NCBI RefSeq assembly: GCF_965216415.1
Contig: NZ_CBDCFU010000001.1
Length of the DNA: 64,000 bases
DNA from: Marivita sp.
GTDB taxonomy: Bacteria > Pseudomonadota > Alphaproteobacteria > Rhodobacterales > Rhodobacteraceae
Direction: 5' to 3' (one strand)
Below are positions 41,852 to 62,641 of the stretch, piece by piece. Position 1 is the first letter of the stretch; every line of letters begins with the position of its first letter. A program made the translations under genes and the position numbers. A model generated the notes under the pieces. The model had not been told where the DNA came from, did no database searches, and worked only from the letters and a program-made list of their open reading frames with translations.

Positions 41852-43369
41852 TCAGTCCTGCTGAAACGCTGTGGCGAACCTGTCGCGTAGCTGATTTTTT
41901 TGAACCTTTCCCATCGTATTGCGCGGCAACACTTCCATCAGCTCGATCTTTCGCGGGCGCTTGAACCCTGCCAGATCACGCTTTATCGCCGCATATACCG
42001 CGGAAAGGTCCAGGTTCGCACCGGTTTCGGGAACCAGGACAGCGATGACACTTTCGCCAAAATCGGGATGCGGCGCGCCGATCACCGCGCTTTCCTTAAC
42101 GCCGGGCAGCGAATCCAGAAAAAGTTCGATTTCCTTGGGGTATATGTTGAACCCGCCTGAAATAATGAGATCCTTCCCGCGCCCGACGATATGAACATAG
42201 CCGTCCTCATCGATCATCGAGAGATCTCCGGTGATGAAGAACCCGTCCTCGCGCAACTCCTCGCGGGTTTTCTCGGGCATGTTCCAATAGCCCTTGAACA
42301 CGTTTGGTCCACGCACCCAGAGCACCCCGATCTCACCGTGCGGAAGTTCATCGCCCGTCTCGGGATCACAGATTTTTACATTTACCCCGGGCAGCGGAAA
42401 GCCTACCGTTCCGGCCCGTCGCTCGCCGTCATACGGGTTCGATGTGTTCATCGAGGTTTCTGTCATACCGTAGCGTTCGAGGATGCGGTGCCCGGTACGC
42501 GCCTCGAACTGACGGTGCGTTTCGGCCAAAAGCGGAGCAGAGCCCGAGATGAAGAGCCGCATATGCGCGGCCAGATCGCTATCGAAGCGCGCGTCTTCCA
42601 GAAGGCGGGTGTAGAATGTCGGGACACCCATCATTGTTGTCGCCTTCGGCAGCCAGCTCAGCACCGCTTCCAGATCGAATTTCGGCAGGAAAATCATTGC
42701 CCCGCCCGAAAGCAAAATCACGTTTGTCGCGACGAAAAGCCCGTGGCTGTGAAAGATCGGCAGCGCGTGCAGCAGAACGTCGTTGCTCGTAAATTGCCAG
42801 CTCTCGACCAGAACCTCGGCGTTCGACAGCAGGTTCTTCTGCGTGAGCATCGCGCCTTTCGCGCGTCCTGTCGTTCCCGAGGTGTAGAGCAACGCTGCCA
42901 GATCGTCTTCTGAACGCGGCACTGTGGCAAACGTGGCTTCTTGGCCTCGCGCGAGATCAGCCAGGGTTCCATCTCCGTCCGGACCGAGCGTCTTTAGAAT
43001 AGCGCCGGACCCATCTGCGAGCTCGCGAAGCTCCGCTTCCTCGGAGGTATCGCAAACGAAGAGCGCGGCACCGCTGTCATTGACGAAGTAGTCCAACTCG
43101 CGGGTCGTATAAGCTGTGTTAAGCGGCAAGAGGACCACGCCAGCCTTGACACAAGCAGCGTATAGCATGAGCGCCTGCGGGGATTTCTGGACGTGGACAG
43201 CCACCCGGTCTCCCGGTCCGATACCCAGCGAGGAAAGCGCGTTTGCCATCCTGGAAGCTTCTTCCAGGAAAGTCTCGTAAGACAATGTATGTCCGTCTGC
43301 GAGATGTAAAAACGGGGACGTGCGACCTTCATGCGGCGCGAACAGGGCATCATAGAGAGGGTTCGTCAT
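41852..43369 (-). CDS. matB: Malonyl-CoA synthetase-like acyl-CoA ligase
   Basis: 'YTSGTTGRAKG', 'LHALPIFHSHGL', 'ILERYGMTET', 'PRNTMGKVQK'. Confidence 0.88.
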   Translation of the reverse strand: MTNPLYDALFAPHEGRTSPFLHLADGHTLSYETFLEEASRMANALSSLGIGPGDRVAVHVQKSPQALMLYAACVKAGVVLLPLNTAYTTRELDYFVNDSGAALFVCDTSEEAELRELADGSGAILKTLGPDGDGTLADLARGQEATFATVPRSEDDLAALLYTSGTTGRAKGAMLTQKNLLSNAEVLVESWQFTSNDVLLHALPIFHSHGLFVATNVILLSGGAMIFLPKFDLEAVLSWLPKATTMMGVPTFYTRLLEDARFDSDLAAHMRLFISGSAPLLAETHRQFEARTGHRILERYGMTETSMNTSNPYDGERRAGTVGFPLPGVNVKICDPETGDELPHGEIGVLWVRGPNVFKGYWNMPEKTREELREDGFFITGDLSMIDEDGYVHIVGRGKDLIISGGFNIYPKEIELFLDSLPGVKESAVIGAPHPDFGESVIAVLVPETGANLDLSAVYAAIKRDLAGFKRPRKIELMEVLPRNTMGKVQKNQLRDRFATAFQQD

Positions 43370-43437: not shown

Positions 43438-43857
43438 TCACCCGGTTTCCGCCGTCAGACCCTGTGCCTCGATGGCAGCTACGGCGCAAGTTTCGTCATT
43501 GTCGGAACTGTCTCCCGTGATGCCAATCGCACCGATCAGAGCACCATCCTGCTTGATCAGCACACCGCCGGGTACGGGTACAAGCGCGCCGCCGTTTAGT
43601 GCGTTCATTGAGTCAATGAAATAGGGCTGCTCCTGCGCACGGTTAAACAGTGCCCGCGAACCCAGCCCCATGGCCACCGCGCCCTTTGCTTTGCCCTGCG
43701 CAATCGCGGCACGCAGGTTGCTTGTTCCGTCTTCGCGTTGCAGCGCCACGAGATGACCGCCGCCATCGATCACCGCTATGGTCAGCGGCTTTAGACCATG
43801 CGCCCTGCGATAGTCGAGAGCGGAGGATATGAGAGCATTGGCAAGGTCGAGGTTCAT
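43438..43857 (-). CDS. GlcG/HbpS-family heme-binding protein
   Basis: 'AVIDGGGHL', 'IAQGKA', 'GGVLI...IGAIGITGD..D'. Confidence 0.85.
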   Translation of the reverse strand: MNLDLANALISSALDYRRAHGLKPLTIAVIDGGGHLVALQREDGTSNLRAAIAQGKAKGAVAMGLGSRALFNRAQEQPYFIDSMNALNGGALVPVPGGVLIKQDGALIGAIGITGDSSDNDETCAVAAIEAQGLTAETG

Positions 43858-43921: not shown

Positions 43922-45202
43922 CTAGCCGTAGAAGTAATCTACGAGGAAGAGTGGGATCGCCGGAATGTAGGTACACATCAAAAGCACCGTCAGAAGGACT
44001 GCGATGAAGTAAATGTTTACCTTGGTAACGTCCCAGATATTGGCCCGCGCCACTGCGCAGGCGGTGATCAGAACGCTGGCTACAGGTGGCGTCTGCTGCC
44101 CAATGGCAAGATTTAGTGTCACCACCAGGCCGAAGTGGATCGGATTGATCCCTACTGCGTCGATCAGCGGGATTACGATGGGCACCACGAGGATGATCGC
44201 AGCGGCCGAGTGCAGGAAGAACCCGATCACGAGAAAGAAGAAGTTCAGTATCAGCAGGACCAACCATTTGTTGTCCGTGATGCTGAGAATTGCCTGCGCC
44301 AGTTCCTGCGGATATTGCGCGCGGGTCAGGAAGCCGCCCATCACAACCGAGGCCGCGACCAGCAGCATCACCACCGCCGTCTGCATGCCACCGTCCAGCA
44401 TCGAGCGCTGAAGGTGCTTCAGATCGACTTGCCGATACCACAGGCTGATCGCGATGGCCGCAAGAACCGCCAGACCCGCCGCTTCCGTCGCGGTGACATA
44501 GCCGCCGAAGATGCCGCCCAGAATGATCACCGGCAGGGCAAAGGTCGGCAGAGCGTCCTTGAAGGCCTCCCACAAGCGACGGCCCGAAAACGCCTCTTCG
44601 CGCGGCAGATCATAGCGTACGGCGAAGTAGTAGGCGACGCCCATCAGACCTGCGGCCCCCATCACGCCTGGGATCACACCCGCCACGAACAGCTGTTCGA
44701 CCGAGACGTTTGCAGAAGTGGCGTAAAGGATCATCGGGATCGACGGTGGAATGATGATGGCGAGCGACGCCGACGACGATGTCACCGCCGCGGACAGCGC
44801 GCCCGAGTATCCACGCTTTTTCATTTGTGGGATCATTACCGACCCCATCGCAGCCACGTCCGCCACGGCAGAGCCAGAGATCTCGGCGAAGAACAGCGAC
44901 ACACCGATATTCACATGCGCCAGACCGCCCCGGACAAAGCCGATCAGCGCTGCCACGAAATTGATCAGACGGTCCGTGATGCCGCCCGCGTTCATGATTG
45001 CGCCGGCCAGGACGAACATCGGGATCGCGATCAGCGAAAACTTGGTCGCGCCGCCGTACATATCGAGCGCCACATTGACCAGCGACCCCGCGCCTTCCAG
45101 CGCCAGAAGCCCCAGGATCGCGGACACGGCCAAGGCCACGGCGATCGGGACGTTGAGACAGATCATCGCCACCATCGCGATGAAGATCCCCAGCATCAGC
45201 AT
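43922..45202 (-). CDS. dctM: TRAP transporter large permease
   Basis: 'AIPMFVLAG', 'GGLAHVN', 'ISGSAVAD', 'IIPPSIP', 'QTPPV'; start MLMLGI with TGATG overlap. Confidence 0.92.
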   Translation of the reverse strand: MLMLGIFIAMVAMICLNVPIAVALAVSAILGLLALEGAGSLVNVALDMYGGATKFSLIAIPMFVLAGAIMNAGGITDRLINFVAALIGFVRGGLAHVNIGVSLFFAEISGSAVADVAAMGSVMIPQMKKRGYSGALSAAVTSSSASLAIIIPPSIPMILYATSANVSVEQLFVAGVIPGVMGAAGLMGVAYYFAVRYDLPREEAFSGRRLWEAFKDALPTFALPVIILGGIFGGYVTATEAAGLAVLAAIAISLWYRQVDLKHLQRSMLDGGMQTAVVMLLVAASVVMGGFLTRAQYPQELAQAILSITDNKWLVLLILNFFFLVIGFFLHSAAAIILVVPIVIPLIDAVGINPIHFGLVVTLNLAIGQQTPPVASVLITACAVARANIWDVTKVNIYFIAVLLTVLLMCTYIPAIPLFLVDYFYG

Positions 45203-45744
45203 CAGGCGTTCCCCGCTTTCTTGAGTTCTGTTTCGACTTCTTCCTCGATCTCGGCGTGTTCGAGCGAAACGCCGGAGGCCGTCTTGCGCCAATATTCGGG
45301 AAGGCTGAGGGCCTGACAAATGAGGAACAGGACCGCGCCGATGGGGATAACCGATTGCGTAAAGCTGATCGGCACCCATGTCAGCGAGGTGAGCGTCATA
45401 CCACCAAGAACCGTCATCACCACATAGCCAGCCCAGGCCAGCAGGATGAAGAAGCCCGCCGTAACGGCCTCGGCCAACAGCACGGCCCACATCCGGGTCG
45501 GCATCGGAATGGCAAGCAGAACGCTGTCGAAGCCGATATGACGGCGTCTGAGCGCCGCCAGGGCCGAGCCGTAGTAGGTGATCCAAGCAAGCAGGATCGC
45601 CGCAACCTCGTCATACCACGACAGGCTCGATCCAACGAGGCGGTAAATCACGGCAACGATCACCGTAACGGTGAGAATAACCATGAGGAAAATCACCAGA
45701 TATTCGAGCACAAACTCGAAAAAACTGCGCAGTGAGTTGAGCAT
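45202..45744 (-). CDS. dctQ: TRAP transporter small permease
   Basis: 'SWYDEVA..LLAWITYYG...RRRHI'; 4 TM. Confidence 0.88.
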   Translation of the reverse strand: MLNSLRSFFEFVLEYLVIFLMVILTVTVIVAVIYRLVGSSLSWYDEVAAILLAWITYYGSALAALRRRHIGFDSVLLAIPMPTRMWAVLLAEAVTAGFFILLAWAGYVVMTVLGGMTLTSLTWVPISFTQSVIPIGAVLFLICQALSLPEYWRKTASGVSLEHAEIEEEVETELKKAGNA

Positions 45745-45846: not shown

Positions 45847-46827
45847 TCAGGAACCCGATGCCAGGCTCTGAATGCGTTCTACCATCTCCGCGCCGCCTTC
45901 GACGGTGTTGGAGAACTCTTCGTAGATCGGACCCGACGCCTCGATAAAGGCCGCGTTGTCGGCTTCGTTCACCTCGACGCCCGCATCGCGGATGACCTGC
46001 AGCAGCTCTTCTTCCAGTTTGGCTGCGTGCTCGTAAACGAAATCCTGGGTCTCGGACCCGCAGGCCTCAAGATCGGCGCGCACGTCTTCGGGCAGCTTCT
46101 GCCACTGGTTCTCGGCCACTAGGACATAAGCCGGCGTGTAGACATGGCCGGTGATCGACAGGTAATCTTGAACTTCCTGGAACTTGGCGGAAGCGATCTG
46201 GGCGTACGGGTTTTCCTGCCCGTCGATCACGTTCGTTTGCAGCGCGGTGAACACTTCTGAGAAAGCCATCGGCGTTGGGTTCGCACCGTAGAGCTGGAAC
46301 ATCTTCACGCGCCATTCGCCGTTCGGCGTCCGCAGTTTGACGCCCTGCAGGTCCTCGGGTGTGTTGATCGGACGCACATTGTTGGTGATGTGGCGGAAGC
46401 CGTTCTCGAAATAGCCGATGATGCGGTAGCCCTCGCCCAATGCCGCTTCTTGGAACGTGTCGCCCAGTTCGGTCTGAATGGCGCGCATGTGGTCGCGGTC
46501 CTGTACGATATAGGGCATTTCGAAAACGCCGAATTCCGGCGCGACCGACGACATGACCGACGACGGCAGGGCAAAGTGAACCTGTCCAAGCTTCAGCTTC
46601 TGCAGCAGCTCTCGATCATTTCCCAACTGGCTGGATCCAAAGGTCTGGACCTCGGCTCGGTTGCCCAGCTTGCCATTTGCGCATTCCGCGAATGCGTTGA
46701 CAGAGGCTTCGAACAGCGATCCTGGATTGCCGACGTGGCCAAAGCGCAGGGTCATATCCTGTGCGCTCGCGACCAGGGGCATCGCGATTGCTGCGGCGCT
46801 TGCGATAAGTGTTGCCTTCAGTTTCAT
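45847..46827 (-). CDS. dctP: TRAP transporter substrate-binding protein
   Basis: 'ENGFRH', 'GVKLRTP', 'FSEVFTALQT.VIDGQEN'; conserved carboxylate-binding Arg. Confidence 0.92.
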   Translation of the reverse strand: MKLKATLIASAAAIAMPLVASAQDMTLRFGHVGNPGSLFEASVNAFAECANGKLGNRAEVQTFGSSQLGNDRELLQKLKLGQVHFALPSSVMSSVAPEFGVFEMPYIVQDRDHMRAIQTELGDTFQEAALGEGYRIIGYFENGFRHITNNVRPINTPEDLQGVKLRTPNGEWRVKMFQLYGANPTPMAFSEVFTALQTNVIDGQENPYAQIASAKFQEVQDYLSITGHVYTPAYVLVAENQWQKLPEDVRADLEACGSETQDFVYEHAAKLEEELLQVIRDAGVEVNEADNAAFIEASGPIYEEFSNTVEGGAEMVERIQSLASGS

Positions 46828-46861: not shown

Positions 46862-48049
46862 TTATTCAGCGGCGAACCGCTCTTCCGTGGTCTCTTTGAG
46901 ATGCTCCATCGCAGCCTGCGCTCCTCCCGATTGGTGCGGAATACCGGCCTTTGTCAGTCCCATTTCGACGCCAGACAGCGTCGCCATCAGCATCAGGTCG
47001 TTGAAATCACCCAAGTGGCCGATGCGGAACACCTTATCGGCCACCTTTGACAGGCCATTGCCGAGCGAGATGTCATAGTACTTAAGCGTGGTGGCACGGA
47101 ACGCGTCGGCGGAATGACCATCCGGCACCAGGACCGCCGTCAGTACGCCCGATTCCTGTCCTTGTCGTGCGCACAGTACTTCTAGTCCCCAGGCGCGCAC
47201 CGCCGCCCGCGTCGCCGCGCCATGCCGTGCATGGCGGGCGAATACGTTGTCCAGCCCTTCTTCATGCAGCATGGCGATGGCTTCGTTCAGACCGTAGAGC
47301 AAGTTGGTCGCCGGTGTGTACGGAAAGTAGCCAATGGCGTTAGGACCGACCATGTCGTGCCAGTCCCAGTAGCTGCGCGGCATCGTGGCGGATTTCGCGT
47401 GTTCCAGAGCTTTTTCGCTAACGGCATTGAAGCTCAGCCCTGGAGGCAGCATCAAGCCCTTTTGCGAGCCGGAAACGCAGACATCGACGCCCCATTCGTC
47501 AAACCGAAAGTCGATCGACGCGAGGCCGGAGATCGAATCTACCATCAGAAGCGCCGGATGCCCCGCCGCGTCGATAGCCTTGCGCACCTCGGCAATAGGC
47601 GACACCGACCCTGTCGAGGTCTCGTTATGCACTACGCAAACTGCCTTGATCTCGTGTGCCGTGTCTTCACGCAGACGCGTCTCGATCCGATCCGGCTCGG
47701 CCCCGCCGCGCCAGTCGCCTTCCAGGAACTCGGGCACCAGCCCGATCTTGCGCGCCATTTTGCTCCACAACGTTGCGAAATGCCCGGTCTCAAACATCAG
47801 CACCTTGTCGCCGGGCGACATCGTGTTGACCAGCGCCGCTTCCCAAGCGCCCGTGCCAGACGAGGGATAGATGACGACATGCTGCTTGGTCTTGAAGATG
47901 GTCTTCATGCCTTCCAGCGCGGTCTTGCCCACATCGGCGAAATCAGGGCCGCGATGGTCGATGGTCTGCTGCCCAATAGCCTTCAGAATACGGTCCGGCA
48001 CGGCGCTTGGGCCAGGGATTTGCAGGAAATGTCTGCCAGCTTGGCGCAT
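46862..48049 (-). CDS. Class V PLP aminotransferase (serine/aspartate-glyoxylate aminotransferase-like)
   Basis: 'FLQIPGP', 'VHNETSTG', 'VDSISG', 'SGSQKGLMLPPG'. Confidence 0.88.
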   Translation of the reverse strand: MRQAGRHFLQIPGPSAVPDRILKAIGQQTIDHRGPDFADVGKTALEGMKTIFKTKQHVVIYPSSGTGAWEAALVNTMSPGDKVLMFETGHFATLWSKMARKIGLVPEFLEGDWRGGAEPDRIETRLREDTAHEIKAVCVVHNETSTGSVSPIAEVRKAIDAAGHPALLMVDSISGLASIDFRFDEWGVDVCVSGSQKGLMLPPGLSFNAVSEKALEHAKSATMPRSYWDWHDMVGPNAIGYFPYTPATNLLYGLNEAIAMLHEEGLDNVFARHARHGAATRAAVRAWGLEVLCARQGQESGVLTAVLVPDGHSADAFRATTLKYYDISLGNGLSKVADKVFRIGHLGDFNDLMLMATLSGVEMGLTKAGIPHQSGGAQAAMEHLKETTEERFAAE

Positions 48050-48116: not shown

Positions 48117-48132
48117 ATTATGAATTCATAAT
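48117..48132. promoter_or_regulatory. Perfect 16-bp palindrome, likely GntR operator in divergent promoter
   Basis: ATTATGAATTCATAAT flanked by ttgttgtc / gtcaacaa. Confidence 0.6.
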
Positions 48133-48193: not shown

Positions 48194-51067
48194 ATGCGCG
48201 AGAACACACGTCTTGGGAGCCGTTTGCGCACCGCCGTTTCGGGCGACGTTCTGGGAGATGCCGCCTCACGCGCGCGGTACGCGACAGATGCTTCAATCTA
48301 CCAGATGGTTCCTGAAGCTATTGTCATTCCGCGCAGCGAAGAGGATGTGCAGGCTGCAATGCAGATCGCCCGCGAAGAGGAGGCGCCGGTTCTGCCCCGA
48401 GGCGGAGGCACGTCCCAATGCGGACAAACCGTCAATCGGGCGGTGGTGCTTGACAACACGCGGCATCTGAATGGCATCCTGGACATTGACGCCGAAAACC
48501 TGACCGCCCGCGTGCAACCCGGCCTGGTGCTGGATGAACTTAATCGCGCGCTCAAGCCACACGGGCTCTGGTTTCCGGTCGATCCCTCAACCGCGTCGCG
48601 CTGCACGCTGGGGGGAATGGCCGCGAACAATTCCTCTGGCGGAAAATCCCTGCGCTTCGGAATCATGCGCGACAATGTCCGCGCCATTACTGCAATTCTG
48701 CCGGACGGCACCAAGGCGAGGTTCAACGGGACAACACCCGAACCGGGGCCTTACGCCGATCTGGTCACCGACATGCGCGCGCTGGGGCGCCGTGAGGCCG
48801 ATGAGATCGACGCACGCTTTCCGAAGGTGCAGCGTCGCGTCGGTGGCTACAATATTGACGCGCTCGTCGGCAATGACGTGAACATGGCGCATCTACTGGT
48901 CGGCTCCGAAGGCACGCTGGCCTATTTCACCGAGCTGGAGCTGAGCCTTGCCCCCCTGCCCGGCGAGAAGGTGACAGGCGTTTGCCATTTCCCGAGCTTC
49001 TATGCTGCGATGGAAGCCACCCAGCATCTCGTCAGGTTGAACCCGCAAGGCGTTGAACTGATCGATGATACGATGATCGAACTGGGCCGCGACATTCCGC
49101 TCTTTCGCAAGACGATCGAAGCCTTTGTCCAAGGTGATCCGGCCGCCCTCTTGCTCGTTGAGTTCGCCGAAGGCAGTGCAGACGGCAATGCCGCCAAGCT
49201 CGCTGAGCTGTCTCAGCTAATGGGGGATATCGGTTTTTCCTTCACGGGCACCGGACAGGCCTGGGGCGGTGTCGTTCCAGTGACGGACAATGCGTTGCAG
49301 GGTGCGATCGCTGAATATCGCAAATCTGGCCTCAACGTGATGATGTCCATGAAGGAAGCCGGCAAACCCATTTCCTTTGTCGAGGATTGCGCCGTCGCGC
49401 TACCGGACCTCGCGGAGTACACACAGGGCCTTACAGATATTTTTGCCCGTCATGGGACAAAGGGCACGTGGTACGCCCATGCTTCGGTCGGATGTCTGCA
49501 CGTGCGCCCGGTCCTCAACATGCGGCAGGACAAGGATGTCCAGACCATGCGCGCCATCGCGGAGGAGGCGTTTGACCTGGTCAAGCGCTACAAGGGCTCG
49601 CATTCCGGCGAACACGGCGACGGAATCGTACGCTCCGAATTCCACGAAAAAATGTTTGGCAGGCGGATTGTCTCTGCCTTCGAGGAGGTAAAGGCGCGAT
49701 TTGATCCGCATGGGCTCATGAACCCCGGCAAGATCGTCCATGCGCCCGCGATGGATGACCGTCGGGTGTTCCGTTATGGTCCCAATTATACGGTTCCGGA
49801 GTTCGAGACCGCCCTTGACTGGTCCGCATGGCCGGGCGCGGCGGGCGGTTTTCAGGGCGCCGTCGAAATGTGCAATAACAACGGAGCCTGTCGCAAGCTC
49901 AAGGGTGGCGTCATGTGCCCCTCTTTCCGCGCCACACGAAACGAACGCGATGCTACGCGCGGGCGGGCGAATACGCTGCGTTTCGCTATCAGCGGCCAGA
50001 TGCCCGGAGGTCTGACCTCGGACGCGATGGCCGATACGATGAAATATTGCGTGTCCTGCAAAGGCTGCCGCCGCGAATGCCCCACGGGGGTCGACATGGC
50101 CCGGATGAAGATCGAAGTCCTGGCCGCGCGCCGCAAGGAAAACGGGCTGACGCTGGCAGACAAGCTAGTGGGCTACCTGCCCCGCTATGCGCCCAAGGCT
50201 GCCAGGGCCGCGTGGCTGATGAACCTGCGCAACAGGATCGGCCCGGTCCGCAAATTCACGGAAAGACTTACTGGAATTTCCCATCGCAGAGACCTGCCGG
50301 TTTGGTCCTCGACCCCGTTTCGCGATGACGAGGCACAGGATACAGATCCGCAGGTCCTGCTTTTTGCCGATGTTTTCAATCGGTATTTCGAGCCCGAGAA
50401 CCTGCGTGCGGCGCTCCGCGTTCTGCGCGCCGCCGGGCTACGCGTCGCGGTTGCGCAGGATGGCAGCGGTCGGGCACTCGATTGCGGACGCACGATGCTC
50501 GCGATCGGCTGCGTCGACGAAGCGCGGTCCGAGGCACGGCGCGTGATCGAGGCAACCAAGGACGCGGTGGCGCGCGGCATTCCGATCGTGGGTTTGGAGC
50601 CGTCTTCTATCCTCACCTTCCGTGATGAATTTCTGGCGCTTTGCCCAGGACCGGAAACCGAGGCGTTGGCCGCCGTCACGCACACGTTCGAAGAGTTCCT
50701 CGCCAAGCGCCCTGATCTTCCGATGAAGCCTCTGGAACGACCAATCTACATACATGGCCATTGCCATCAAAAAGCGCAGGAGGCGGTGACGCCGATGCTT
50801 GACCTGCTGCGGCGCATTCCGGGAGCTGATATAACCATGATCGAAAGCTCCTGCTGCGGCATGGCGGGGGCCTTTGGCTATGCCCCCGATACGATAGATG
50901 TGTCTCTCAAGATGGCTAATCTGGATCTTTTCCCGGCCCTCGAGAGCGCCCCGGAGAACGCTATCATCGTGGCAGACGGCACATCCTGCCGCCATCAAAT
51001 TGCCGACGGCACACCGCGCCGCGCAATTCATGTCGCTCGTTTGCTCGACCAAATCCTTTGTGAATAG
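48194..51067 (+). CDS. FAD-binding and Fe-S oxidoreductase (GlcD/GlcF-like fusion, 2-hydroxyacid dehydrogenase family)
   Basis: 'YATDAS', 'RGGGTS', 'SGEHGDG', 'CNNNGAC', 'CVSCKGC..C', 'CCGMAG'. Confidence 0.88.
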   Translation: MRENTRLGSRLRTAVSGDVLGDAASRARYATDASIYQMVPEAIVIPRSEEDVQAAMQIAREEEAPVLPRGGGTSQCGQTVNRAVVLDNTRHLNGILDIDAENLTARVQPGLVLDELNRALKPHGLWFPVDPSTASRCTLGGMAANNSSGGKSLRFGIMRDNVRAITAILPDGTKARFNGTTPEPGPYADLVTDMRALGRREADEIDARFPKVQRRVGGYNIDALVGNDVNMAHLLVGSEGTLAYFTELELSLAPLPGEKVTGVCHFPSFYAAMEATQHLVRLNPQGVELIDDTMIELGRDIPLFRKTIEAFVQGDPAALLLVEFAEGSADGNAAKLAELSQLMGDIGFSFTGTGQAWGGVVPVTDNALQGAIAEYRKSGLNVMMSMKEAGKPISFVEDCAVALPDLAEYTQGLTDIFARHGTKGTWYAHASVGCLHVRPVLNMRQDKDVQTMRAIAEEAFDLVKRYKGSHSGEHGDGIVRSEFHEKMFGRRIVSAFEEVKARFDPHGLMNPGKIVHAPAMDDRRVFRYGPNYTVPEFETALDWSAWPGAAGGFQGAVEMCNNNGACRKLKGGVMCPSFRATRNERDATRGRANTLRFAISGQMPGGLTSDAMADTMKYCVSCKGCRRECPTGVDMARMKIEVLAARRKENGLTLADKLVGYLPRYAPKAARAAWLMNLRNRIGPVRKFTERLTGISHRRDLPVWSSTPFRDDEAQDTDPQVLLFADVFNRYFEPENLRAALRVLRAAGLRVAVAQDGSGRALDCGRTMLAIGCVDEARSEARRVIEATKDAVARGIPIVGLEPSSILTFRDEFLALCPGPETEALAAVTHTFEEFLAKRPDLPMKPLERPIYIHGHCHQKAQEAVTPMLDLLRRIPGADITMIESSCCGMAGAFGYAPDTIDVSLKMANLDLFPALESAPENAIIVADGTSCRHQIADGTPRRAIHVARLLDQILCE

Positions 51068-51076
51068 GAGGACGCT

Positions 51077-51757
51077 ATGCCTCTGACCGAAACCATTCAC
51101 CGCGCTACGCTGCATGAGGAACTTGTCGAACGACTGCGCAATCTCGTCGTCGAGGATACGCTGAAACCCAATGAAAAGGTGCCCGAAAAAGAGCTCTGCG
51201 AAGCTTTCGGAGTTTCGCGGACTCCGCTCCGTGAGGCGCTCAAGGTGCTGGCCTCCGAGGGGCTGATCGTGTTGCATGCTAATCGCGGCGCACGCGTGGC
51301 AACGGTAACACGCGAAGAGCTGGAAAAAACCTTCCCGATCATTGCTGTTCTGGAACAGCTGGCTGGCGAACTGGCCTGCCAAAATCTTACCGACGCCGAG
51401 ATCGAGAGTATCCAGAAACGCCACGACGCGATGATCAATGCCTATCGTTCGAAGGATCGCCAAGCTTATTTCCAAGCAAATCAGGACATCCATAACGCTC
51501 TGATCGAGGGCGCACGCAACGACATTCTTGAAACGCATCACCGACTTCTTGCGTCCCGCGTACGCCGGGCTCGATTCATGGCCAACCTGTCTGATGACCG
51601 CTGGGCGCAGGCCATCCACGAACACGAGCAGATGATGGAAAAGCTGCGCGACCGCGATTCCCAGGGCCTGGGCAAACTCATGAAGAGTCACATGATGAAC
51701 AAATACGCGGCCCATACCAAGGCAATGGATGCACATTCCGAAGACCCGGTCGAGTGA
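51077..51757 (+). CDS. GntR-family (FCD) transcriptional regulator
   Basis: 'FGVSRTPLREAL', 'NQDIH', 'HEH'. Confidence 0.9.
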   Translation: MPLTETIHRATLHEELVERLRNLVVEDTLKPNEKVPEKELCEAFGVSRTPLREALKVLASEGLIVLHANRGARVATVTREELEKTFPIIAVLEQLAGELACQNLTDAEIESIQKRHDAMINAYRSKDRQAYFQANQDIHNALIEGARNDILETHHRLLASRVRRARFMANLSDDRWAQAIHEHEQMMEKLRDRDSQGLGKLMKSHMMNKYAAHTKAMDAHSEDPVE

Positions 51758-51823: not shown

Positions 51824-52600
51824 ATGACCAGCGACATCTCGTCGGAACAACGGGGCACGGCTCTTTGGGTGCAGTTCAATCGTCCAGAGGCACGCAATGC
51901 CATGACCTTTGCCATGTACAAGGAATTAGCCCGGCTGTGTGACGAGATGCCCACGGACGGATCCATCCGTGCGATGGTCGTCTCCGGTGTAGGAGGCAAA
52001 GCCTTCGCGGCAGGCACAGACATGACGCAATTCCGCGCCTTCGAGACGGCTCAGGATGCGTTGGATTACGAAGCCGAGATCGACCGCGTGCTAACTGCCG
52101 TGGAGCGCTGCCCGGTCCCGACCGTAGCGGCAATCCACGGCGCCTGTACCGGGGGAGGCGCATCGATCGCAGCGGCATGCGATGTCCGCATCGCCAGCGA
52201 AACGTTGAAATTCGGCTTTCCGATCGCTCGCACCTTGGGGAATTGCCTGAATGCCGGGAATCTGGCCCGGCTTAGCGAACTCATGGGCGCGGGGCGTGTG
52301 CGTGAACTCATCTTCACAGCGCGGTTGATGGGCGCCAAAGAGGCAAAGGAAGCCGGTTTGGTATCGGAAATTCTGCCTGACGAGGACGCGCTGATGGCAC
52401 GCGCGGACGAGTTGGCGGATCATCTGGCCAGCATGGCACCTCTTACGTTGCGTGCAACAAAGGAAGCCATGCGCCGCAACCGGGCGGCGCTGGCCGCCGA
52501 GGACAGTGACCTCATCACAATGTGCTACATGAGCCGCGATTTCAAACACGGGCTCGAAGCCTTTCTAAACAAGACCAAACCAGAGTGGAGCGGAACATGA
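51824..52600 (+). CDS. Crotonase-superfamily protein (non-canonical)
   Basis: 'FNRPEARNA', 'AFAAGTDM', 'GGGASIAAACD', 'GFPIARTLG'; both hydratase Glu absent. Confidence 0.85.
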   Translation: MTSDISSEQRGTALWVQFNRPEARNAMTFAMYKELARLCDEMPTDGSIRAMVVSGVGGKAFAAGTDMTQFRAFETAQDALDYEAEIDRVLTAVERCPVPTVAAIHGACTGGGASIAAACDVRIASETLKFGFPIARTLGNCLNAGNLARLSELMGAGRVRELIFTARLMGAKEAKEAGLVSEILPDEDALMARADELADHLASMAPLTLRATKEAMRRNRAALAAEDSDLITMCYMSRDFKHGLEAFLNKTKPEWSGT

Positions 52601-53799
52601 GCAAGAGTGGTCCCCTGACCGGAATGAAAGTAATCGAACTGGCCCATATCATGGCCGGCCCCGCTTGCGGAATGATGCTGGCCGACATGGGGGCCGATGT
52701 CATCAAGGTCGAAAAGCCGGATGGTGACGACAGCCGCCGCTTCCTTCCCCCCGAAATCAAGGGCGAAAGCGCCGCTTACATGATGATGAACCGCAACAAG
52801 CGCGGCATTGCACTGAACCTCAAGGACCCGGACGCCATCAAGGTACTGCGGACGCTTCTGGACAGCGCCGATGTGGTAGTCGAAAACTACCGTCATGACA
52901 CGATGGACCGGCTCGGACTTGGTTACGAGACGCTGCGCAAAAGCAATCCGAAGCTGGTCTATTGCTCTATCAGCGGCTTTGGCAGGACCGGACCTTATGC
53001 CGAGCGTGGTGGGTTCGATCTTATTGCGCAAGGCATGTCAGGACTCATGTCGATTACCGGCGAGGGGCCCGGTCGTCCGCCAGTCAAGCCCGGTGCGCCA
53101 ATTGCAGATATTACAGCAGGGTTTTTGGCTGCGCTCGGCTGTGTGGCGGCCTACACCAATGCACAGCAAACCGGCGAAGGACAGATGGTCGACACCTCGC
53201 TTTTCGAGGCGGGCATTTCTCTCACATATTGGCAATCAGCCATTGCATTCGCGACTGGCACGGCACCTGGCCCTCTCGGTTCGGCACATCCTCTGAACGC
53301 GCCGTATCAGTCCTTTCGAGCGCGCGACGGCTGGATCAATATTGGCGCGGCCAATCAACGCAATTGGACCCGGCTGCTTGAAGTCGTTGGTGCCAGTGAG
53401 CTTCAGGATGATCCACGTTTCGGCAGCAATGCAGATCGGATAAAAAATCTTGCTGAACTTGTACCGATTCTGGAGGAGCACCTGCAAAAGCGCGATACGC
53501 ACGATTGGCTTCGCCTGATGGATAAGGCCGGACTGCCCGCAGGGCCGGTGATGAACGTGTCAGAGATGCACCGCGATGAACAGGCGCTGGCCAGGGAAAT
53601 GATCGTGGAGACCGATCATCCTGTCGCCGGACCGGTCAAGGCCATCGGCTTGCCAGTAAAATTCAGCGGAACACCGGGGAGCGTTAATCGTCCCGCTCCT
53701 ACCCTTGGCCAGCATGGACACGAAATTCTGTCTGAATACGGCTTTTCGTCTGATCGCATCGCAGAACTGGAACGATCTGGCGCAGTAATCAAGGGCTAG
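52597..53799 (+). CDS. CaiB/BaiF class III CoA-transferase
   Basis: 'ADMGADVIKVE', 'NRNKR', 'ENYR', 'APIADI'; ATGA overlap. Confidence 0.9.
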   Translation: MSKSGPLTGMKVIELAHIMAGPACGMMLADMGADVIKVEKPDGDDSRRFLPPEIKGESAAYMMMNRNKRGIALNLKDPDAIKVLRTLLDSADVVVENYRHDTMDRLGLGYETLRKSNPKLVYCSISGFGRTGPYAERGGFDLIAQGMSGLMSITGEGPGRPPVKPGAPIADITAGFLAALGCVAAYTNAQQTGEGQMVDTSLFEAGISLTYWQSAIAFATGTAPGPLGSAHPLNAPYQSFRARDGWINIGAANQRNWTRLLEVVGASELQDDPRFGSNADRIKNLAELVPILEEHLQKRDTHDWLRLMDKAGLPAGPVMNVSEMHRDEQALAREMIVETDHPVAGPVKAIGLPVKFSGTPGSVNRPAPTLGQHGHEILSEYGFSSDRIAELERSGAVIKG

Positions 53800-61753: not shown

Positions 61754-62641
61754 ATGAGCAAAGTAGGTTTCATCGGGCTGGGAATCATGGGCGCGCCTAT
61801 GGCAGGGCAATTGATTGAGGCGGGGCACGACGTGTTCCTGCATTCGCGTAGCGGTGTTCCGGGACATCTGACCGATGCTGGTGGTACGGCCTGTAAATCG
61901 CCGCAGGCGGTGGCCGAGGCATCAGACACGATCATCCTGATGGTGCCGGACACGCCGCATGTCGAAGCGGTCCTGTTCGCCGAAAGCGGCGTGTCTGCCG
62001 GGTTGAGCGCGGGGAAATGTGTGATTGACATGAGCTCGATATCACCGCTGGCAACCAAGGAATTTGCGCGAAAGATCAATGATCTGGAATGTGATTATGT
62101 AGATGCGCCTGTCTCCGGCGGAGAGGTCGGTGCCAAGGCGGCCAGCCTGACGATCATGTGCGGCGGGTCTGATGCGGGATTTGCGAGGGCGCTGCCGCTG
62201 CTGGAGCAGATGGGCAAAAATATCACCCATGTTGGCGACATTGGGAGCGGCCAGGTCTGTAAAGTCGCCAATCAGATCATCGTGGCGCTGAACATCGAAG
62301 CCGTCAGCGAGGCGCTGGTGTTCGCATCCAAGGCCGGAGCCGACCCGGAAAAGGTGCGTCAGGCGCTTATGGGGGGCTTTGCTTCGTCGAAAATCCTGGA
62401 AGTGCACGGCGAGCGCATGGTTAAACGCACTTTCGATCCTGGTTTTCGCATCGAATTACATCAAAAGGACCTTGGCCTCGCGCTCTCCAATGCCCGTCAA
62501 ATGGGGCTGAGCCTGCCAAACACCGCCACGGCGATGGAATTGTTCAACGCCTGCGTTGCCAATGGCGGGGCCGCGTGGGACCATTCCGGCATGATCCGAG
62601 CCCTTGAACTGATGGCCAGTCACGAAATCGGGCGCTCGTAA
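61754..62641 (+). CDS. garR: 2-hydroxy-3-oxopropionate (tartronate semialdehyde) reductase
   Basis: 'GFIGLGIMGAPMA', 'DAPVSGGE', 'CKVANQ', 'PGFRIELHQKDL'. Confidence 0.88.
   Translation: MSKVGFIGLGIMGAPMAGQLIEAGHDVFLHSRSGVPGHLTDAGGTACKSPQAVAEASDTIILMVPDTPHVEAVLFAESGVSAGLSAGKCVIDMSSISPLATKEFARKINDLECDYVDAPVSGGEVGAKAASLTIMCGGSDAGFARALPLLEQMGKNITHVGDIGSGQVCKVANQIIVALNIEAVSEALVFASKAGADPEKVRQALMGGFASSKILEVHGERMVKRTFDPGFRIELHQKDLGLALSNARQMGLSLPNTATAMELFNACVANGGAAWDHSGMIRALELMASHEIGRS

Follow-up and report, generated by a model that had tools for sequence, protein, structure and literature searches.

Enoyl-coenzyme A (CoA) hydratases such as rat ECH (1dub), the Clostridium acetobutylicum enzyme (5z7r) and the 3-hydroxypropionyl-CoA dehydratase of Metallosphaera sedula (5zai) carry out their reaction with a pair of catalytic glutamates held in the crotonase fold, and the methylmalonyl-CoA decarboxylase (MMCD) ScpB/YgfG of Escherichia coli (NF008506) shares that fold. 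This study concerns a crotonase gene at positions 51824-52600 of a 64,000-nucleotide stretch of Marivita sp. DNA (NCBI RefSeq assembly GCF_965216415.1, contig NZ_CBDCFU010000001.1), which is called the window throughout. Its product has the same fold and length as the three hydratases, is 31-38% identical to them, and has in common with them both oxyanion-hole segments and the CoA-binding scaffold. However, it carries Ser114 and Ile134 in place of the glutamate pair and a one-residue insertion in the loop past the second site, where it reads A-R-T-L-G-N-C-L and the hydratases read L-G-x-x-P-G-x-G. The protein belongs to the PRK06144 family, thousands of whose database entries are named 'enoyl-CoA hydratase' even though, to judge from their residues, none would be able to use the hydratase mechanism. 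Assigning a reaction to the family would correct that annotation.

An active site without the hydratase glutamates

The open reading frame (ORF) translates without a stop into 258 amino acids, and a Shine-Dalgarno-like GGGAGG lies upstream of its ATG. The protein matches Pfam ECH_1 (PF00378) over residues 14-257 with 160 bits (cut-off 27, E 6e-47) and the 'enoyl-CoA hydratase' subfamily NF004796/PRK06144 of NCBIfam with 378.7 bits, above the curated cut-off of 272, which makes it a member of that subfamily. From an alignment of 54 family sequences AlphaFold2 predicted a crotonase fold with high confidence (mean predicted local distance difference test score, pLDDT, 96.4). Foldseek matched the model to crotonases only, many of them with a probability of 1.00, and the matches listed are 27-32% identical to the protein. 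The positions on which the argument depends are as follows.

51824-52600, + strand: PRK06144-family crotonase-fold protein, 258 aa (ORF translation, profile searches, alignment)
52163-52165 and 52223-52225, + strand: codons of Ser114 and Ile134, at the two glutamate columns of the hydratases
52016-52018, + strand: codon of Thr65, at the first oxyanion-hole position
52220-52246, + strand: family motif P-I-A-R-T-L-G-N-C, residues 133-141 (family alignment)

Three segments were compared with the solved enzymes, namely AFAAGTDM (residues 60-67), GGGAS (110-114) and FPI (132-134). Because the GGGCE and FGQPE/LGLPE segments of 5z7r and 5zai align in HMMER with GGGAS and FGFPI, Ser114 and Ile134 are placed by alignment in both catalytic glutamate columns. 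Both segments of the oxyanion hole, the end of the A-G-x-D strand and the start of the GGG helix, are intact. The pair that defines EC 4.2.1.17 (Glu144 and Glu164 in rat) is replaced in the alignment, and the protein falls outside that class. The initial annotation of this gene had reported kept oxyanion-hole segments and the replacement of both glutamates, and the alignments to solved hydratases and within the family bear this out.

The same replacement was followed through the family in 29 orthologous loci taken from other genomes of the same class and phylum, in the best 150 hits from a search of 1.84 billion cluster representatives (clusters at 50% identity), and in an alignment of 54 sequences (A2) reaching down to 35% identity. 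The second glutamate column is isoleucine in 28 of the 29 orthologues and valine in the other, never acidic. The first is non-acidic in all 29, mostly Ala, Gly or Ser and otherwise Leu, Ile or Asn. About 115 of the best 150 representatives combine G-[TS]-D at the first oxyanion position with P-[IV]-A-[RK]-T-L-G-N-x-L-S past the second glutamate column. In the 54-sequence alignment Pro133, Thr137, Gly139 and Asn140 are invariant and Tyr82, Glu83, Ala135 and Leu142 are at least 90% conserved; the oxyanion-hole residues Gly64, Asp66, Gly110 and Gly112 are invariant in the family as well. Position 136 is Arg or Lys in 135 of the 150 representatives, and Cys141 is the commonest residue at its position (87 of 150), with T, A, V, I and others elsewhere. 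On these alignments the loss of the glutamates is a family trait and not decay or chance.

Because both glutamate columns are non-acidic across a large family that has an invariant polar motif of its own, we infer that hydratase activity has been lost and that the crotonase is probably not a hydratase. This agrees with the initial annotation, for which the family-wide pattern provides good support. Two residues were considered as replacements for the glutamates. Ser114 was rejected as a substitute catalytic residue because its column is A, L, G, S or M across the PRK06144 family, and Cys141 was rejected as a universal one because it is only the commonest residue in a column where T, A, V and I variants exist. 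The motif loop aligns with the Glu164-Gly172 segment of ECH and with the E. coli MMCD loop that bears Tyr140, and this suggests a position for it on the C-beta side of the acyl moiety.

A closer relationship to MMCD was also considered, and was ruled out by the NF008506 score and by the aligned catalytic residues. The crotonase reaches 119.9 bits against this model (cut-off 257) at 26% identity, and His66 and Tyr140 of MMCD correspond to Thr65 and Leu142. The initial annotation had cited malonyl- and methylmalonyl-CoA decarboxylating crotonases as enzymes without the glutamate pair. In the alignment this holds for the second site, where ScpB has no glutamate, but not for the first, where its glutamate is kept.

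Scores above the NF004796 cut-off were found in 27 of 401 sampled Pseudomonadota genomes and in none of 14 control genomes. (The genome survey tallies in this study each include one unpublished genome, G240 or G660, and no locus of either was used.) PRK06144 is a widespread crotonase subfamily whose active site has been re-tooled and whose name is probably wrong, and its genes are situated in a catabolic island.

A conserved CoA-transferase partner

The gene directly downstream of the crotonase is its conserved functional partner.

52597-53799, + strand: family III (CaiB/BaiF) CoA-transferase, 400 aa

The stop codon of the crotonase and the start codon of the transferase share the sequence ATGA, and the same 4-nt overlap is present in the loci of relatives. 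In 15 of the 29 distant loci, drawn from the Alphaproteobacteria and other classes, a transferase orthologue (44-83% identity) adjoins the crotonase. Additionally, two cluster representatives, P0153 (642 aa) and P0194 (648 aa), are natural fusions of a CoA_transf_3 domain with a crotonase domain that bears the PRK06144 motif; in its transferase half, P0153 shares 41% identity with the CoA-transferase of the window. The crotonase is very probably coupled in function to this enzyme. By profile and sequence comparison the nearest named families of the transferase all act on C2-C6 dicarboxylates; it matches the Frc/YfdE models at 260-280 bits and resembles mesaconate and hydroxymethylglutarate transferases.

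One locus (L012:18631-19886) holds, besides a PRK06144-like gene, a second and more remote crotonase without the glutamates (35% identical, Ala at both columns), and this gene adjoins a 31% identical family III CoA-transferase. Pairing of a glutamate-less crotonase with a CaiB-type transferase may be more general.

Genes around the pair

Recurrence of neighbouring genes was determined by all-against-all clustering of the ORFs of the loci followed by family scans, and antisense artefacts of ORF calling in high-GC loci (e.g. Z_L030) were discarded. The window holds these further genes and sites.

51077-51757, + strand: GntR/FCD-family regulator, in the operon between the dehydrogenase and the crotonase
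48194-51067, + strand: fused FAD-linked oxidase and 4Fe-4S/GlpC-like protein (FAD/Fe-S dehydrogenase), 957 aa, with the architecture of a quinone-type D-2-hydroxyacid dehydrogenase
48117-48132, no strand: perfect 16-bp palindrome ATTATGAATTCATAAT, in the divergent promoter region between the aminotransferase and FAD/Fe-S genes
46862-48049, - strand: class V aminotransferase, 395 aa, closest characterised relatives 6pk1 (serine-glyoxylate aminotransferase, SGAT) and BhcA
45847-46827, - strand: solute-binding protein DctP of a tripartite ATP-independent periplasmic (TRAP) transporter, nearest solved relative 4nq8
43922-45744, - strand: TRAP membrane subunits DctQ (45202-45744) and DctM (43922 to about 45202)
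43438-43857, - strand: GlcG/HbpS-like protein (PF03928), 139 aa, an accessory gene that recurs in the module
41852-43369, - strand: MatB-type malonyl-CoA synthetase paralogue, 505 aa, 808 bits to NF005702, at the end of the divergent operon

The neighbours that recur beside the crotonase are the GntR/FCD regulator (13 loci), the class V aminotransferase (11 loci), a fused FAD/Fe-S dehydrogenase of 950-1000 aa (8 loci) and the GlcG/HbpS-like protein (at least 6 loci). The transporter is either TRAP (DctPQM) or of the tripartite tricarboxylate transporter (TTT) type (TctABC, including TctC). Some loci add proteins of the fumarylacetoacetate hydrolase (FAH) superfamily, an aldehyde dehydrogenase of the succinate-semialdehyde dehydrogenase (SSADH) type, an iron-containing alcohol dehydrogenase (Fe-ADH) and a dehydrogenase of the 3-hydroxyisobutyrate dehydrogenase/tartronate-semialdehyde reductase (HIBADH/TSR) family. 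In one locus (L030) a single operon contains the Fe-ADH, the SSADH-like enzyme, GntR, the CoA-transferase, the crotonase and the HIBADH/TSR-like dehydrogenase, followed by DctPQM, and in another (L024) the same pair of HIBADH and aldehyde dehydrogenase genes is found close to those for the transporter, the crotonase and the transferase. The window also has a HIBADH-family gene (61754-62641), 36% identical to that of the L030 operon; it stands in a separate downstream TRAP region of uronate type and is probably unrelated to the crotonase module.

Orthologues of the aminotransferase, whose nearest characterised relatives use glyoxylate, were found at 65% identity or more in 16 of the 121 Rhodobacteraceae genera sampled. 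The FAD/Fe-S gene stands beside it as a divergent pair in 14 of the 15 Rhodobacteraceae loci fetched, and in the exception (L048) the sequence ends about 1.7 kb past the aminotransferase gene. The crotonase-transferase pair is also present in 6 of these 15 loci, and in several classes it is joined by the aminotransferase and FAD/Fe-S pair. The 14-bp core of the palindrome is identical and in the same place in five relatives (L033, L036/L040, L038, L039 and L054), which makes it a plausible candidate operator of the GntR regulator in the operon.

Two identities for the FAD/Fe-S protein were discarded. The genome has glcDEF, from which the dehydrogenase is distinct, so it is not the sole glycolate oxidase; it is not YdiJ either, being 30% identical to the genome's own YdiJ-like enzyme. 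The latter, a homologue of D-2-hydroxyglutarate dehydrogenase (1011 aa, 937 bits), is on contig 2 (L055:4877-11803) near an IS66 transposase, a gamma-glutamyltransferase and a pipecolate-oxidase-like gene.

Proposed reaction and its alternatives

The model proposed here is that the CoA-transferase, rather than MatB in particular, would make the acyl-CoA substrate and that the crotonase would stabilise the thioester enolate so that a C-C bond is broken. The favoured step would be the decarboxylation of a 2-substituted malonyl-CoA, for which a crotonase without the glutamates would need only its oxyanion hole. The candidate that would explain every neighbour is hydroxymalonyl (tartronyl)-CoA, which would give glycolyl-CoA and CO2. 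The transferase would then hand the CoA to the next substrate molecule in an ATP-free cycle like that of formyl-CoA transferase (Frc) and oxalyl-CoA decarboxylase (Oxc), the released 2-hydroxy acid (glycolate) would be oxidised by the FAD/Fe-S dehydrogenase, and the resulting 2-oxo acid (glyoxylate) would be aminated by the SGAT/BhcA-like aminotransferase. We infer the cleavage chemistry, the CoA cycle and the substrate from the active site, the gene coupling and the neighbourhoods.

Decarboxylation is favoured, with tartronate as the candidate acid, because glycolate as product gives the FAD/Fe-S dehydrogenase, GlcG and the glyoxylate-type aminotransferase each a role. A dicarboxylate-type substrate is favoured by the relatives of the transferase and by the TRAP DctP or TTT TctC transporters. 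Two independent contexts, the recruitment of a MatB paralogue and the L030/L024-type operons, suggest more narrowly a malonate-type diacid, since the Fe-ADH, SSADH-like and HIBADH-type enzymes of those operons could turn 3-hydroxy acids, via malonic-semialdehyde-type aldehydes, into malonates. That the crotonase is a decarboxylase is put forward tentatively, as a possibility that falls short of an even chance. Tartronyl-CoA is the most economical substrate to propose, though an unlikely one when taken by itself. It is similarly doubtful that PRK06144 as a whole consists of cofactor-free, CoA-transferase-coupled, C-C-cleaving crotonases that make glycolyl-CoA, whether as tartronyl-CoA decarboxylases or as 2,3-dihydroxyacyl- or tartryl-CoA retro-aldolases.

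Several observations weigh against decarboxylation of tartronyl-CoA. By profile scores the crotonase is no closer to MMCD than to ordinary hydratases, and the PDB matches (best sequence match E 9e-38) include no solved structure of a PRK06144 member. The conserved Arg/Lys136 could form a salt bridge to a carboxylate, and this fits a lyase, in which that group is retained, no worse than it fits loss of the group; the near-invariant Tyr82-Glu83 could supply an acid or base. The link to the CoA-transferase is strong and not universal: about half of the orthologues, mostly alphaproteobacterial and 51-61% identical, are without a CoA-transferase gene within 10 kb (e.g. L006-L011 and L016-L020). Since the genome has glcDEF, there is no need for the additional FAD/Fe-S protein to act as a glycolate dehydrogenase. 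Among the literature matches listed, as far as their accessible text goes, tartronyl-CoA appears only in papers on synthetic pathways. The literature searched yielded no relevant crotonase-using pathway for glycolyl-, tartronyl-, tartryl-, erythronyl- or sulfo-acyl-CoA and no description of the present pathway.

Two kinds of neighbour also fit a different substrate. In one Rhodobacteraceae locus (L049:5812-11355) the aminotransferase-FAD/Fe-S pair occurs without crotonase or transferase and is flanked on both sides by genes for TauE/SafE-type (TSUP) permeases, which hints at a sulfonated substrate (sulfolactate, cysteate) for this pair. FAH-superfamily proteins recur beside the module in two types. 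One is of 227 aa and is encoded at L033:1196-1879, L036:12082-12765 and L025:8946-9620 (171 bits to NF007967, cut-off 201). The other, putative type is a 259-aa protein (L034:11996-12775) for which neither the Pfam record nor the NCBIfam scan shows a match, and it may be akin to MhpD-type hydratases. These genes suggest a 2-oxo acid larger than glyoxylate as an intermediate in some lineages. In favour of the proposed route, a further locus (L050:908-5271) has gcvT, a 119-aa ORF of gcvH size and a 946-aa ORF of gcvP size beside its GntR, FAD/Fe-S and aminotransferase unit, and these glycine-cleavage genes fit glycine as the product.

The main rival to decarboxylation is a retro-aldol lyase, which we regard as rather improbable. 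Here the transferase would make a 3-hydroxy-3-carboxyacyl-CoA or a 2,3-dihydroxyacyl-CoA, with malyl-, tartryl-, 3,3-dimethylmalyl- and erythronyl-CoA as the types in view, and the crotonase would split it into an acyl-CoA and glyoxylate or another aldehyde. Glyoxylate would be removed by the aminotransferase, whose relatives are specific for it, and its carboxylate could be held as it departs by the conserved pocket of Arg/Lys136, Thr137, Asn140 and Ser143. The recurrence of aldehyde dehydrogenases near the module and the resemblance of the transferase to mesaconate and hydroxymethylglutarate transferases are also consistent with this reaction. However, no conserved general base for the 3-hydroxyl is evident, and the known crotonase lyases, such as hydroxycinnamoyl-CoA hydratase-lyase (HCHL), retain a catalytic glutamate. 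A lyase would also fit the nearest solved relatives of the window DctP, 4nq8 and 4p9k/4pak, which we take to be the pantoate- or D-erythronate-bound structures. Papers on TRAP proteins show that a pantoate/erythronate ligand class exists, but ligands that co-purify with such proteins may not be the native ones, and the similarity of the window DctP to 4nq8 is modest (216 bits).

Slightly less probable still is proton-transfer chemistry carried out by other residues, in a 2-hydroxyacyl-CoA epimerase or isomerase, in a thioesterase, or in a hydratase or beta-eliminase (e.g. of sulfite) whose base has moved to a new position. An epimerase or isomerase would feed the D-specific FAD/Fe-S dehydrogenase, crotonases often draw catalytic residues from new positions, and the TauE-type permeases of L049 border the aminotransferase-dehydrogenase pair. 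The residues that could serve are the near-invariant Tyr82-Glu83 and Cys141, in the loop toward C-beta. However, Cys141 is exchanged for Thr, Ala, Val and other residues in many members, Glu83 would by alignment fall in the distal acyl-pocket loop of ECH and not in the catalytic centre, and a thioesterase would be redundant next to a CoA-transferase.

The initial annotation had proposed that the crotonase stands in for a missing MatA by decarboxylating the product of the neighbouring MatB, malonyl-CoA or an analogue of it. Crotonase-fold decarboxylases of malonyl-type thioesters do exist, MMCD being one, matA is not in the window, and both here and in Marivita sp. GX14005 the last gene of the divergent operon is of the MatB family. 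However, contig 2 of the same genome (G000, locus L003:5320-11844) has, behind a divergent GntR gene and TRAP DctP/Q/M-like genes, matA followed by a second matB. This MatA is a 416-aa Pfam MCD (PF05292) protein encoded at 2982 kb, directly upstream of matB, and its MatB scores 826 bits against NF005702 and is 68% identical to that of the window. This is a canonical malonate-utilisation locus, and the MatB of the window is a second copy. Because the genome holds matA-matB on contig 2, absence of MatA is ruled out and the crotonase need not replace it.

MatB as a conserved partner was likewise ruled out, by a comparison of the neighbourhoods of about 40 loci, among which those of the window and of GX14005 are the only ones with a MatB-like gene beside the module. 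It is absent beside a crotonase 90% identical to that of the window, from Roseobacter sinensis, Sulfitobacter sp. D35 and a Devosia genome, from ten more Rhodobacteraceae loci that carry the module or its aminotransferase-dehydrogenase core, and from all 29 of the more distant loci (some 38 loci besides the 90% identical one). The adjacency is a single lineage-specific event and not a conserved part of the module. The partner that is coupled or fused to the crotonase is the CoA-transferase, and neither the replacement of MatA nor the decarboxylation of the MatB product as initially proposed is supported; we consider this reading very unlikely. The recruitment of MatB is a weak hint toward a malonate-like pathway substrate.

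The least probable reading is a non-catalytic acyl-CoA-binding protein that passes substrates to the transferase, like EchA6 of Mycobacterium tuberculosis. EchA6 and other self-closing crotonases of its kind give the best full-length superpositions with the model (TM 0.85-0.90), and EchA6 too has no catalytic residues. However, the invariant polar motif of the catalytic loop, the intact oxyanion-hole glycines and the fusion to an enzyme favour catalysis.

Significance

An assigned reaction for PRK06144 would also explain a catabolic island of transporter, CoA-transferase, crotonase, FAD/Fe-S dehydrogenase and glyoxylate-type aminotransferase that is spread from marine Rhodobacteraceae to soil Alphaproteobacteria and other Proteobacteria. 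If glycolyl-CoA is indeed made from tartronyl-CoA or dihydroxyacyl-CoAs, these would be natural enzymes for intermediates that, in the accessible parts of the papers concerned, have so far been found only in synthetic photorespiration bypasses. The module would then be a pathway not yet described that needs no ATP and leads from an acid sugar or a hydroxy-dicarboxylate by way of glycolate and glyoxylate to glycine, with marine Roseobacter-group bacteria, other Alphaproteobacteria and other classes of Pseudomonadota as its hosts. The family is in addition a clean case for studying how the crotonase scaffold is re-tooled.

Relation to described systems

Among the characterised proteins, EchA6 of M. 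tuberculosis is a crotonase without catalytic residues and one of the best full-length superpositions. However, it is 29-30% identical to the crotonase described here, it does not have the family motif, and nothing at this locus links the crotonase to long-chain acyl-CoA. MatA (Pfam MCD, PF05292) and the crotonase would share a type of reaction if the latter is a decarboxylase, but MatA has an unrelated fold, and the Pfam profile scan gave no PF05292 match for the crotonase.

Gene arrangements of the same kind have been described as well. The gene for ScpB adjoins that for the CoA-transferase ScpC, which makes a decarboxylase-transferase pair like the one proposed here, though ScpC does not belong to family III. 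CaiB-CaiD of carnitine metabolism and Frc-Oxc both consist, as is proposed for the present pair, of a family III CoA-transferase and a second enzyme, which converts the CoA ester and gives back an acyl-CoA donor. CaiD differs from the crotonase described here in being a true (de)hydratase. It retains the catalytic glutamates. Oxc differs in that it depends on thiamine diphosphate and is not a crotonase.

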